Assembly (NCBI GenBank): GCA_040880745.1
Contig: JBBDHX010000051.1
Coordinates: 1-63,676 of the forward strand
DNA from: Actinomycetota bacterium
Lineage (GTDB): Bacteria; Actinomycetota; UBA4738; HRBIN12
Length of the DNA stretch: 63,676 bases
Direction of reading: 5' to 3'
Below the pieces are notes generated by a model. The model worked only from the letters and a program-made list of their open reading frames with translations. It did no database searches and was not told where the DNA came from. Of this stretch, positions 8,109 to 36,244 are shown in pieces (position 1 is the first letter of the stretch; the number at the start of each line of letters is the position of its first letter). The position numbers were made by a program, and so were the translations under genes.

Positions 8109-8205
8109 GCGGGCCGCGACGCAGGAGCGTCGGGGTGCCAGCACACCCGGCGGAGGTGGTCCGTCCCTCCTTCCTTCGGAGGGGGCGCTGGGTGAGGATG
8201 GGTAC

Positions 8206-33095: not shown

Positions 33096-34724
33096 TCAGG
33101 AGAGGCCGTTGGCGAACGCGAACGCGGTGGCGGCCGACCGTGAGGAGACGCCGATCTTCGCGTAGATGTTCTGTAGGTGCCGGCCCACCGTGTGCTCGCT
33201 GATCACGAGTTCCACCGCGATGTCGCGGTTCGTCCTCCCGCCCGCGAGCAGACGGAGCACCTCGGCCTCGCGCGGTGTGAGCCCGCCGGGGACCGGTGCC
33301 GGCGTGCCAAGGAGCAGCGCTACCGCCGCGGCGTCGGGTACGGCGCCGAGGTGCTCGAACGCTGCGAGGGCCCCGCGCAGCTCGAGCGCGGCGCCGTCGG
33401 GGGCGCCGCCGGCGCGGATCGCCAACCCGTAGGAGACCCGGGTCCTCGCCGCCTCGTAGGGGAGCTTCAGCTGCTGCCACACGGCGCAGGCGGCACGCAG
33501 TCGCTCGAGGGCTGCGGACACGTCCCCGCCGGCCAGGTGCCGAGCGCCCGCCGCCGTCCCCGCGATCGCGTCGAACGACGCCGTCCCGGTCTCCCGGGCC
33601 GTGGTCTCGAGTTCCTCGACCGCCGCCTGCGCCTCATCCAGCGCTCCCGCGGCGATCGCGACCTCCACCTGAGCCGCCAGCAGTCGCGCGCGCCTCGGAC
33701 GTTGACCCTCGCCGGCCAGCGCCAGCCGCAGAGCCGTCCGGGCGGCCTCGGTCCGGCCTTGGGCCAGGCGGAGCAGCGCGAGGCCGGGCTGAGGATCGAC
33801 GCCGAGTTCGCGGGCACGGGCGAAGGCGGCCTCGGCCCCATCGACGTCACCCATCCGGCGGCGGACCTCGCCGACCTGGACGAACGCGGAGGCCGCGAGC
33901 CCCGGGTCGGTGTCGGCCAACTCCTCTGACGCCAGGACCGCCTCGGCCTCTGCCTCAGGCCACGCGCCACGGAGCCGGGCCACCTCGGCGCGGTTCACCC
34001 GGCACATGCCCGGATAGGGCGATCCGGGTTGGAGGGCGTCGCACCACGAACGCGCGGCGTCGCTCCACTCGCCGGCGCGCCGCAGGTCGTTCACCTCCAG
34101 GCATGCCTGGATCAGGTTGCAGTAGATCACGCCGGTGAAGTACGGGCTCAGGTCTCCTGCCAGGACCGCGGTCATCGCCTCGTCCATCAACGCCAGACCT
34201 GCGGCGACCTCGCCCCCGTCGATCAGGACGAGCCCTTCGGTGTGGATCGCCATCGCGACCAGGTCGCGGTCGCCGAAGGTCTCGCCGATCCTCGTGGCCT
34301 CCTGCGCCGCCGACCGCGCCTGTTCGAGCGCACCGGAGAACCGTGCCGCGTTCGCCTGGATGAGGACGAGGAAGCCTTGCTCCGGACACGGCGGCTGATC
34401 CTGCAGGTGCCGCTGGGCCCGCATCAAGAACCCGCCGCCCACCGAGGGCTCGCCGCGGATGAAGTGCTCGATCGCCAAGCGAGCCGCGACCGCGCCGGCT
34501 GCGATCTCGTCGCCCGCGGCCGCGTGGGCCGCGTACGCCTTCTGCCGCGCATCGAGCGAGTCCTCGAACCGCGATATCCACCAGGCGGCGTCGGCGAGCC
34601 CTTCCAGGTCACTCGGGGTCAGCAGCGCACGGTCGGCGGTGCTGAATGCATCGTAGGCATCGGCCCACGCGCCGGCCGAGAGGGCGTCCCGCGCCCGGTC
34701 GACCCCGGTGTTCGGTTGCGCCAC
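33096..34724 (-). CDS. LuxR-family regulator with TPR-like N-terminal region
   Basis: C-terminal LTPREAEVLRLLAGGRTNRDIAVELVISEHTVGRHLQNIYAKIG. Confidence 0.92.
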   Translation of the reverse strand: MAQPNTGVDRARDALSAGAWADAYDAFSTADRALLTPSDLEGLADAAWWISRFEDSLDARQKAYAAHAAAGDEIAAGAVAARLAIEHFIRGEPSVGGGFLMRAQRHLQDQPPCPEQGFLVLIQANAARFSGALEQARSAAQEATRIGETFGDRDLVAMAIHTEGLVLIDGGEVAAGLALMDEAMTAVLAGDLSPYFTGVIYCNLIQACLEVNDLRRAGEWSDAARSWCDALQPGSPYPGMCRVNRAEVARLRGAWPEAEAEAVLASEELADTDPGLAASAFVQVGEVRRRMGDVDGAEAAFARARELGVDPQPGLALLRLAQGRTEAARTALRLALAGEGQRPRRARLLAAQVEVAIAAGALDEAQAAVEELETTARETGTASFDAIAGTAAGARHLAGGDVSAALERLRAACAVWQQLKLPYEAARTRVSYGLAIRAGGAPDGAALELRGALAAFEHLGAVPDAAAVALLLGTPAPVPGGLTPREAEVLRLLAGGRTNRDIAVELVISEHTVGRHLQNIYAKIGVSSRSAATAFAFANGLS

Positions 34725-34788
34725 GATCCCTCTCCTCCGAACGTCGTGGACTCAGCCTAGTCAGAGGAGGGTGTGGCTCGAGCGATGG

Positions 34789-34878
34789 TCAGCGGGCGAT
34801 CCCACCAGTGCTCACGACGGGCCCGGAGGCTCCGAGCTCGGCGAGCACGCCTCGGAGGTCATCGATGACGCCGGTGGG
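34789..34878 (-). pseudogene. Possible 3-prime gene remnant (HAD-hydrolase-like tail)
   Basis: PTGVIDDLRGVLAELGASGPVVSTGGIAR*; no start. Confidence 0.3.
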
Positions 34879-34909
34879 AGACCGTGGCAGGGGCGGTACC
34901 GTCGGGAGC

Positions 34910-35302
34910 ATGGGACTGATCCGGACGCTCGCGCGGTGGGGGCTGGCCGGCCTGATGCTCGTCGCCGGGGTCGCGCACCAGGTCTACACCGAGGAGTTCC
35001 TTGCGCAGGTGCCGAGCTGGCTCCCGTTGCGCACCCCCATCGTGATCGTGAGCGGTGTCGTCGAGATCGGGTTCGCCGTGGCGCTGCTCACCTGGCGCCG
35101 TCGCCGTCGCGAGGTCGGCTGGGCGCTCACGGTCTACCTCGCCGTGGTGTTCGTCGGGAACCTGTCCCAGGCGCTCGAGGGCACGAGCCTGTTCGCGCTC
35201 GACACCGATGTCGAGCGATGGGGGAGGCTCGCGCTGCAGCCGGTGCTCATCGCGGTGGCTCTTTGGAGCACGGGCGCGTGGATAAGATCCGCGGATCGAT
35301 GA
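34910..35302 (+). CDS. DoxX-like membrane protein
   Basis: AGVAH, VPSWLP, SGVVEI, VFVGN, RLALQP. Confidence 0.85.
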   Translation: MGLIRTLARWGLAGLMLVAGVAHQVYTEEFLAQVPSWLPLRTPIVIVSGVVEIGFAVALLTWRRRRREVGWALTVYLAVVFVGNLSQALEGTSLFALDTDVERWGRLALQPVLIAVALWSTGAWIRSADR

Positions 35303-35317
35303 CGCTGGCCTGCGTTG

Positions 35318-35346
35318 TTGCCTTCCCCCGAGGTCTGGCTCAGCAT
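35318..35346 (+). promoter_or_regulatory. Sigma70-type promoter TTGCCT-N17-CAGCAT
   Basis: Correct spacing, directly upstream of the structured element. Confidence 0.55.
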
Positions 35347-35377
35347 GTGCGGCACGAGAGGAAGGAGGTGGTCCAGC

Positions 35378-35419
35378 TTGTATGAACAGCTCGAGACCCT
35401 CGAGGTGACTGGCTGCTGA
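35378..35419 (+). CDS. 13-codon sORF MYEQLETLEVTGC
   Basis: Extended SD AAGGAGGTG (35362-35370) 7 nt before TTG; alternative ATG 35382 gives MNSSRPSR. Confidence 0.45.
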   Translation: MYEQLETLEVTGC

Positions 35420-35564
35420 GCCATCCCTCGCGGCCGGGGCGACCACCCCGCCCGCACGCCGGGTGACCGGCAGAATCCAACCAGCTCACCGACCTCACGG
35501 GTTCCGGCTGGTCGACCGGACGAAGCCTCGCAAGAGGCCGAAGTCCTCGTGAGGGGACAGCAAC

Positions 35565-35610
35565 CGAACGGGCCGGGCCTGCACGCGGGGCCCGGCCCGT
35601 TCGTCGTCTC
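35565..35610 (+). terminator. Intrinsic terminator-like hairpin
   Basis: Perfect 15-bp stem CGAACGGGCCGGGCC/GGCCCGGCCCGTTCG with T-containing tail. Confidence 0.75.
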
Positions 35611-35716
35611 GGTCCCATCCGTGGGGGGACCTCCGACCCTTGTCGCGAGCCTCGCCGATGAAGAGCGTCAGGACGTGGAGCGGCCCGAGGGGGCTGCCCA
35701 TATGGGGGAGGACGAG

Positions 35717-36244
35717 ATGAAGATCATCGTCGTGTACGAGTCCATGTTCGGCAACACCCAGACCATCGCCGAAGGAGTGGCCGAGGGGCTGCGCGACGCG
35801 GGCGAACTCGGCTTCGGATCGGTCGATGCGATCGCGCCCGAGGAGGCCGGCGACGTCGACCTGATCGTCGCCGGGGGACCGACGCACGCCCACGGCATGG
35901 CCAGGGCCGGCGCACACGAAGCTCTGGCGAGCGATAAGTCTTCCGAGAAGTACGGGGAGATCCTGCCGGGCCGCGAGAGCCTCCGCGGATGGCTCGACCG
36001 CCTGCCGCAGGGGCACGCCACGGTCGCTGCGTTCGACACGCGGTTCGACAAGCCGATGTGGATCACCGGATCGGCCGCGAAGAAGATCGCGAGCCGGCTC
36101 GAGCGCAAGGGCTACGTGGTCATGGCAGCGGAGAGCTTCCTGGTGGGATCGACGAACGGGCCGCTCTTGGAAGGGGAGCGCGAACGGGCGGTCGTGTGGG
36201 GCCGCGAGTTGGCCGCGAAGGCACGGTCGGCCATCACCGCGTAG
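35717..36244 (+). CDS. Flavodoxin-like protein
   Basis: VVYESMFGNT, GGPTHAHGM, AAFDTR, GSAA; SD GGAGG. Confidence 0.88.
   Translation: MKIIVVYESMFGNTQTIAEGVAEGLRDAGELGFGSVDAIAPEEAGDVDLIVAGGPTHAHGMARAGAHEALASDKSSEKYGEILPGRESLRGWLDRLPQGHATVAAFDTRFDKPMWITGSAAKKIASRLERKGYVVMAAESFLVGSTNGPLLEGERERAVVWGRELAAKARSAITA

Follow-up and report, generated by a model that had tools for sequence, protein, structure and literature searches.

Ms_IGR-5 (Rfam RF02471) is among the most widely conserved small RNAs (sRNAs) of the actinobacteria. In the accessible parts of the published record, homologues are described as expressed in S. lividans, S. avermitilis and M. smegmatis (PMC8079986, PMC8780764, PMC10454040), ribosome footprints are recorded on MS_IGR-5 homologues of M. 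abscessus and M. smegmatis (PMC4974804), and the 5′ end of M. smegmatis IGR-5 (ncMSMEG15794c) is given as an A by nicotinamide adenine dinucleotide (NAD) captureSeq in a preprint that terms the family a ‘validated but yet uncharacterized’ sRNA (bioRxiv 10.1101/2021.12.14.472595). Our literature search, which reached the original description (Li et al. 2013) through citations only, found no account of a mini-open reading frame (mini-ORF), a pseudoknot or a function, and the accessible part of PMC4633059 contains nothing on IGR-5. Here, we describe an element of ~255 nt at 35354-35610 of contig JBBDHX010000051.1 (assembly GCA_040880745.1, an Actinomycetota bacterium of the HRBIN12 lineage), which is very likely a distant homologue of Ms_IGR-5; the whole stretch analysed, 63,676 nt in length, is referred to as the window.

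Our preferred reading, to which we assign a probability of roughly 0.6 as a whole statement, is that the element encodes a translation-gated RNA that engages ribosomes. It may combine an exceptionally strong ribosome-binding site, a mini-ORF conserved as a frame and a pseudoknotted fold that claims the same bases as the frame. The element was first noticed in a reading of the letters alone (the original prediction), and all the motifs listed there are present in the sequence where they had been placed.

Kinship with the Ms_IGR-5 family

A scan of the whole window against Rfam at gathering thresholds returned no family, tmRNA included. A permissive scan of 35200-35800 gave one outstanding match, to RF02471 (29.3 bits, E 7.7e-5), which covers model positions 1-184 of 184 at 35354-35546 on the + strand and was repeated when the whole genome was searched with the model. 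The covariance search that the original prediction had proposed therefore yields a full-length Ms_IGR-5 match, but one below the gathering score and not a strong hit. Among 61 genomes drawn from the relatives, 27 match RF02471 at E <= 0.01 (own genome included; 18 of 36 within the genus), every match being full length and at 21-44 bits, with the exception of one 74-bit copy in G001, a genome of the same genus.

Conservation extends over the entire unit in 27 loci of the order, and a covariance model built from 27 own-order copies only (R1) finds 95 of 100 sources full length (E <= 0.01). Mycolicibacterium and Streptomyces loci are among them, as are three loci (L121, L104 and L134) that Rfam scores at 175-190 bits; the five misses are L062, L112, L124 and two chance loci. 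Rfam scores in a 20-locus sample form a gradient, from 175-190 bits in mycobacteria through Nocardioides (113), Micromonospora (98), Streptomyces (93), Cellulomonas (67) and Blastocatellia (50-52) to Acidimicrobiia (34-58) and the element’s own genus (40.5 bits), and L142, L116 and L092 have no RF02471 match at E <= 0.001. Because the sub-threshold match is full length and R1 recognizes the family reciprocally, the element is very likely a homologue that lies at the extreme of the Ms_IGR-5 continuum, under the curated threshold of Rfam. The original view that it could not be assigned to a known family is superseded, and the homologues with compensatory changes for which that prediction had called were found across the family.

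The likeness extends over the full length of the Rfam model, and both the element and Ms_IGR-5 are intergenic and single copy. They share a 5′ part with an A at +1, a 5′ helix, an extended Shine–Dalgarno (SD) sequence and a 12-14-codon ORF ending five codons past GAGGUG, and a 3′ part with helix P2, a GCGAAUNCC-type motif and a branched domain. The element differs from Ms_IGR-5 in the tail of its ORF (T-L-E-V-T-G-C, not T-[RC]-E-V-A-[AV]-[RS]), in one bulged base in P2, in a pseudoknot of GACC/GGUC rather than GGAC/GUCC, in an added 15-bp terminal hairpin past the three-way junction, and in the frequent CTG at the start position of copies of its own type (16 of 27). Both types occur on a single 1.14-Mb contig (C5) of G001, where L002 is canonical (74 bits, peptide end TCEVAAR) and L028 is of the window’s type (21.8 bits, TLEVTGC); one genome can therefore hold the two types, whether as paralogues or by transfer.

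Species genomes were scanned with an exact pattern in which the SD and GAGGUG motifs were fixed; this gave 120 loci (L029-L148), and from it the stored stretches with the core motif in the collection are estimated at ~5600. The sources of the pattern loci include Mycobacterium, Streptomyces, Micromonospora, Nocardioides, Cellulomonas, Parafrankia and Acidimicrobiales, with a few in metagenome-assembled genomes (MAGs) labelled Blastocatellia, Syntrophobacter/Deltaproteobacteria, Sumerlaeota and Eisenbacteria. The members or near-members in these MAGs are L068, L095, L122, L062, L142, L116 and L100; the Blastocatellia copies, at 50-52 bits, are over the Rfam cut-off and have promoters of the TTGACA/TACTAT type. 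Two of the pattern loci, L069 and L133, were chance matches inside Streptomyces coding sequence and were dropped from all counts.

R1 finds one copy in the element’s own genome. Of 151 genomes of the phylum (own included), 60 match R1 at E <= 0.001, with two copies in only 1 of the 60; excluding six matching genomes flagged as unpublished (G041, G061, G077, G106, G125 and G175) leaves 54 of 145. In this draw, entire families stood at 8/8 to 10/10 or at 0/7 to 0/10.

Frame, fold and a proposed translation gating

The features of the predicted RNA, all on the + strand, are given below in approximate 5′ to 3′ order.

35354-35610: predicted RNA, ~255 nt; 5′ end at the start of the Rfam match, 3′ end inferred from the terminal hairpin
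35355-58 with 35399-402: helix P0, CGAG with CUCG, covarying family-wide
35359-35374: extended SD sequence AGGAAGGAGGUGGUCC, 16 contiguous pairs with the 16S tail of the same genus
35370-73 with 35395-98: candidate helix P1, SD tail GGUC with GACC, the same GACC as in the pseudoknot
35378-35419: mini-ORF, TTG at 35378, 12 further sense codons and TGA at 35417-19; predicted peptide (M)YEQLETLEVTGC
35395-98 with 35510-13: pseudoknot, GACC inside the ORF with GGUC of the P5a loop, flanking bases covarying
35404-12 with 35481-90: helix P2, GGUGACUGG with CCAGCUCACC, 9 bp and a bulged C35485, covarying
35410-35423: stop-codon hairpin UGGCU-GCUG-AGCCA (35410-14/35419-23), read from the sequence; excludes P2
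35430-35455: variable hairpin P3, with GACCACC (35441-47), a complement of the SD tail, in its loop and 3′ strand
35458-35471: hairpin P4, GCCGG-GUGA-CCGGC, changed on both sides at five of five pairs family-wide
35472-35480: conserved single-stranded AGAAUCCAA, family motif GCGAAUNCC
35493-35554: P5 three-way junction, closing stem 35493-99/35548-54
35503-07 with 35516-20: P5a, loop CUGGUCGA, partner of the pseudoknot
35525-29 with 35534-38: P5b, part of the three-way junction

The ribosome-binding site stands out within the window. No 16S rRNA was found in the element’s own MAG (88% complete), so the 16S tail was taken from genomes of the same genus; the 19-letter 3′-end pattern that was searched is present in five of five, and in the two examined closely the tail ends ...GGAUCACCUCCUUUCU. 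Against this tail AGGAAGGAGGUGGUCC forms 16 contiguous pairs (14 Watson–Crick and two G-U), and at -29.4 kcal/mol it is the strongest 16S-tail duplex on either strand of the window; the second-best complement, GGCGGAGGUGGUCCG at 8144-8163 (+), reaches -23.0 kcal/mol. The SD string AAGGAGGTG is contained in AGGAAGGAGGTGGTCC (35359-74), and a second SD-like GAGGUG lies inside the ORF at 35402-07.

Such a site could serve as a decoy, in which the 16-nt complement of the 16S tail holds or titrates 30S subunits and the mini-ORF does no more than release them. The length of the duplex and its rank in the window would suit this role, as would GAGGUG at an SD distance from the stop codon and the internal strands that resemble the anti-SD of 16S rRNA. 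To titrate ribosomes from one copy per genome would, however, demand very high expression, and the elaborate 3′ domain is left without explanation; we consider the decoy decidedly unlikely.

The frame itself was examined in 146 real loci, in register with GAG-GUG, which give 130 distinct strings from SD to stop. In 145 of the 146 the stop lies exactly five codons past GAG, with an in-frame ATG, GTG, TTG or CTG 1-7 nt after GGUCC; the sole exception is L100, whose stop is not at the fixed place. Among the distinct relatives, 129 of 130 have an NUG just 3′ of the SD, in frame with the stop five codons past GAGGUG. A canonical in-frame start (ATG, GTG or TTG) is present in 110 strings, CTG only in 19 and none in one. 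Within 0-9 nt after GGUCC, canonical starts are in frame 112 times and out of frame 26 times, and the corresponding figures for CTG are 20 and 3. The spacer between SD and GAGGUG has eight lengths (24-32 nt), giving ORFs of 12 (85), 13 (34) or 14 (10) sense codons, closed by TAG (100), TGA (21) or TAA (8). The 28 loci retrieved by the Rfam model likewise have an invariant GAGGUG. Because length changes in steps of three, the NUG is free in its first base and three stop codons share one site, selection appears to act on translation, and we expect with good confidence that the mini-ORF is translated. The original claim of a short ORF with a strong initiation site is thus borne out by conservation of start position, frame and stop in 129 of 130 relatives. 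An ATG at 35382 in the +1 frame (eight codons, with a stop inside GGUGA) was rejected as an alternative: it is not conserved across the family, and out-of-frame starts number 26 against 112.

At the start position the 27 own-type copies have TTG in 11 and CTG in 16, which hints that initiation at CTG may be driven by the very strong SD. The copies with CTG only are L004-L009, L012-L015, L018, L021, L023, L024, L026 and L028, and Acidimicrobiia loci with CTG only include L041, L049, L064, L110, L111 and L145.

It could be argued that the RNA is an untranslated regulator acting by base pairing or protein binding, the SD-like stretch being a seed or structural strand and the frame incidental. The family was discovered as an sRNA, the accessible text of papers that mention it continues to term it uncharacterised (bioRxiv 10.1101/2021.12.14.472595, PMC10454040), its covarying structure is extensive, AGAAUCCAA is conserved and single-stranded, and a majority of own-type copies offer only CTG to an initiating ribosome. 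An untranslated RNA would not, however, be expected to keep an NUG at a fixed distance from the SD, an ORF that changes length by threes and three alternative stops at one site, nor to carry the footprints that the accessible part of PMC4974804 describes on homologues. We regard it as unlikely.

If the frame is translated, the product need not matter. A strict dual-function sRNA, a small mRNA with the 13-residue peptide as its active product, would account for the conserved frame and for the retained C-terminal T-x-E-V-x-x-x. Even within the genus, however, residues 2-6 are free to vary; the Thr, Glu and Val codons that are conserved fall in the pseudoknot, P0 and P2, with the third base of the Thr codon covarying with the P5a loop; and in L029-L148 the search pattern itself had fixed the E-V codons. 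An active peptide is, therefore, highly improbable. By comparison of the predicted sequences, the 13-codon ORF is conserved as a frame and not as a peptide, and of the proposed dual sRNA/peptide only the conserved frame survives; its free residues are not conserved, and its conserved ones are explained by helices.

Type I toxins are hydrophobic peptides, usually of over 20 residues. A type I toxin-antitoxin mRNA, also put forward in the original prediction, would share with the element a short ORF within a highly structured, stable-looking RNA. The predicted peptide argues against it, having 13 residues of which four are acidic and none basic, and not being hydrophobic; the element is also single copy and widespread across the phylum, and no antisense partner came to light, although no search aimed at one was made. 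We give this explanation next to no credence.

The fold is supported at several levels. For the + strand the folding z-score is -4.61, a stability matched by 0 of 200 shuffles (- strand, z = -3.14); many G-U pairs likewise fit the + strand. Helices P0, P1, P2, the base of P3 and P4 were tested in an own-order alignment with the partners slid as a control: 96.6% of cells are paired, against 30-47% when slid. Variation within the order is small, with five pairs changed on both sides, a figure reached by 6 of 500 shuffles. The family test used 96 members aligned to R1, an alignment fitted to the tested structure, and gave 91.9% of cells paired (27.8-44.7% when slid), both-sided changes in 236 cells (61 +/- 6 in shuffles) and a covariation score of 0.246 against 0.103, with 0 of 500 shuffles reaching either value.

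The 3′ half of the ORF is one strand of three pairings with covariation support, namely P0, the pseudoknot and P2. P0 joins the first bases after +1 to four bases ending in the first G of GAGGUG. One of its pairs is AU in 59, GC in 22, CG in 11 and GU in 4 members, and the variants across the family include CACG/CGUG, CGCG/CGCG, CCAG/CUGG, CCGA/UCGG and GCAG/CUGC, among others, with CGGG/CCCG in own-order relatives. The competing RNAalifold pairing of GAGG, the SD core, with CCUC was set aside: L011 breaks it (A-C) and keeps P0 (G-C), and it is P0 that covaries family-wide.

In the pseudoknot, Watson–Crick pairing between the base 3′ of GAC and the base that precedes GUC in the loop is seen in 72 of 110 distinct sequences (24% after partner swapping), and the base 5′ of GAC is paired in 105 of 110 (55% when swapped); in 42 cases the best of several loop sites was chosen, a choice that the swapped control had as well. 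Examples are GGACU/AGUCC, GGACG/CGUCC, GGAUG/CAUCC, GGGACC/GGUCCC, GAGACC/GGUCUC and GCGACC/GGUCGC. The pseudoknot thereby explains the apparently synonymous variation of the Thr codon, whose third base covaries with the P5a loop. Another GACC, in the loop and 3′ strand of P4 (35465-68), is a second possible partner of GGUC at 35510-13, and the single-sequence minimum free energy (MFE) fold uses pairings of this kind.

P2 pairs the last ORF codons, GGTGACTGG in DNA letters (35404-12), with CCAGCTCACC (35481-90), whose RNA contains a UCACC resembling the 16S anti-SD. Pair 9 is GC in 28, CG in 26, UG in 27, UA in 12 and AU in one member family-wide; own partners form 9.3 pairs against 8.4 when swapped, and within the order L025 and L008 carry A-U to G-C changes. 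The stop-codon hairpin, with GGCU/AGCC kept in the own-order alignment, is the candidate alternative to P2. The original prediction had GGUGACUGG/CCAGCUCACC as the alternative to the stop-codon hairpin; the pairing is real, but the hierarchy is reversed, P2 being the helix with covariation support. In the P5 closing stem, 11 sequences have both sides changed at one pair. GACCACC in P3 was considered as a universal pseudoknot partner of the SD and rejected, as just 20 of 115 distinct relatives have a box of at least 7 nt (own p = 0.06); boxes of this type are found mostly in the own order and Acidimicrobiia. Taken as predictions from aligned sequences, the conserved ORF codons are explained by RNA helices.

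The arrangement suggests a model of translation gating. A 30S subunit would dock on the super-SD and translate the mini-ORF, and the ribosome reading it would have to melt P0, the pseudoknot and P2. With the ribosome at the stop codon, its P site would lie 6 nt past GAGGUG, an SD distance, and the anti-SD could hold there; the stop-codon hairpin would form only while P2 is open. The RNA would, in this way, alternate between a compact, folded, untranslated state and an unfolded, translated one, and it would be the act of translation, not the peptide, that selection has kept.

Several observations weigh against this model. The counts given above come from kin that are not independent and overstate the number of independent events, and the invariance of SD and GAGGUG in L029-L148 is by construction, the pattern search having fixed both. 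CTG, present in 16 of 27 own-type copies, is a poor start codon. P1 shows no covariation, the SD being invariant, and one of its pairs is broken in 33 of 96 members; the pseudoknot has only 4 bp in the element, adjoining an A-G mismatch where relatives pair. When P0 and P2 are enforced, the fold comes out 13.7 kcal/mol above the MFE structure (-142.5 kcal/mol), which is not the family fold. The terminal hairpin lacks a U tract and the terminator scan was negative, and the RF02471 score of 29.3 bits is below the curated 45 bits. Lastly, we infer the mutual exclusion of folding and translation from geometry.

The gating model could be extended to the Ms_IGR-5 superfamily as a housekeeping sensor or regulator of ribosome availability. 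The RNA would capture 30S subunits by its complementarity to the full length of the 16S tail, a single brief round of translation would unfold the pseudoknotted core, and the balance of folded and opened forms would report free translational capacity to a partner. We offer this extension tentatively and hold it to be rather doubtful.

Ends of the element and its neighbours

The element interval sits within a 414-nt intergenic gap, with the following features at its ends and on either side.

34646-35302: ORF for a MauE/DoxX-like membrane protein (weak), upstream of the element
35318-35323, + strand: -35-like box TTGCCT, read from the sequence and in a conserved register in relatives
35341-35346, + strand: -10-like box CAGCAT (NANNNT), after a 17-nt spacer
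35565-35603, + strand: terminal hairpin, a perfect 15-bp GC stem (35565-79/35589-603) with a 9-nt loop and a U-poor tail
35717-36244, same strand: flavodoxin-like ORF, 107 nt 3′ of the element (Pfam Flavodoxin_1, 24.6 bits; cut-off 25)

A consensus scan of the element region gave 0 promoters and 0 terminators, and the calls at both ends therefore rest on conservation rather than consensus. The -10 box lacks the first T and the terminal stem has no U run after it. Of the 27 own-type copies, 20 carry TTG in the -35 register (-36 to -34) and all have T at -35; in the NANNNT box (-13 to -8), A at -12 and T at -8 are present in 20 of 27, and more distant relatives have GATAGT, GAGTAT, CACAAT or GAAGAT at the -10 position. 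The proposed +1 is A35354, where the Rfam match begins; A stands there in 27 of 27 own-type copies, in agreement with the NAD-cap mapping of M. smegmatis IGR-5. Relatives carry compensatory changes in the terminal hairpin. Two loci of another family of the same order, L003 and L010 (1501-1730 in each), are without this extra 3′ hairpin; there, the P5 closing stem and a U run end the RNA and look like a terminator. In metatranscriptome data one run came up (0.06 of words), whose contigs touch only 35727-36243 (90-99% likeness), outside the element. The element is, as predicted from these conserved ends, a stand-alone gene for a small RNA of ~255 nt, and the original description of a stand-alone structured RNA holds, promoter-like and terminator-like ends of its own being present and conserved.

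The neighbours bear on a further suggestion, that of a cis-acting leader or ribosome-controlled switch for the flavodoxin-like gene. That gene lies on the same strand only 107 nt downstream, the terminal hairpin is without a U tract, and the frame of the sORF is open as far as the flavodoxin ATG. A Pfam search of 112 flanking ORFs (the two longest per flank at 28 loci) nevertheless found differing neighbours, including P-type ATPase, polysaccharide deacetylase, GH4, GGDEF, ABC transporters, MttB, SpoIID and others; no flavodoxin was found among the two longest ORFs per flank at the other 27 loci of the order, a search in which short genes can be missed. Clustering of 210 flanking ORFs from 105 loci gave 144 clusters, of which the largest has 11 members, and flanking genes are common to close relatives only. 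The comparison of downstream genes that the original prediction proposed thus finds them variable, which argues against its flavodoxin switch, as do the conserved promoter-like boxes and hairpin that the element possesses and the variation of its stops among TAG, TGA and TAA. We consider a cis-acting leader very improbable. Five of five ORFs overlapping the element, on either strand, gave no Pfam family.

Past the TGA at 35417-19, the mini-ORF frame has no stop before the in-frame flavodoxin ATG at 35717 (35378-35719 of the window). The open frame is probably chance in GC-rich DNA, because relatives have other neighbours and TAG or TAA stops; read-through of the TGA into flavodoxin was rejected on the same grounds.

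Significance and comparison with known translated RNAs

Our analysis adds to the Ms_IGR-5 family a sub-threshold lineage distinguished by its ORF tail, the bulge in P2, an additional hairpin and CTG start codons; it also shows that the two types can share a genome (G001), and it quantifies a pseudoknot that accounts for ‘conserved’ codons. A whole order carries a version that the Rfam cut-off misses. With the conserved ORF codons read as helices, the question of function becomes testable by separating translation from folding. If translation gating is correct, it would represent a new way for a cell to gauge its own ribosome supply; if the sensor extension also holds, the family would be a new class of ribosome-gated riboregulator in much of the Actinomycetota and a few other phyla.

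The closest parallels in other systems are partial. SR1/SR1P, SgrS/SgrT and RNAIII/delta-haemolysin are sRNAs that also encode a conserved, active peptide. The element resembles them as a small RNA that is also, by prediction, translated. It differs in that its free residues vary and its conserved codons are RNA helices, and in that its ORF lies inside the structural core, whereas theirs lie beside the regulatory part. In leader-peptide attenuators of the trpL and ermCL type, translation of a short ORF selects between alternative RNA pairings, and the element may share this translation-dependent choice; unlike them, it has no conserved downstream gene or regulatory codons and ends in a hairpin of its own. 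Lastly, tmRNA (transfer-messenger RNA) is pseudoknotted and contains a short internal ORF, which ribosomes translate as far as its stop codon. The element is likewise predicted to be pseudoknotted around a short internal ORF, but it lacks a tRNA-like domain and has an ordinary SD and start codon.

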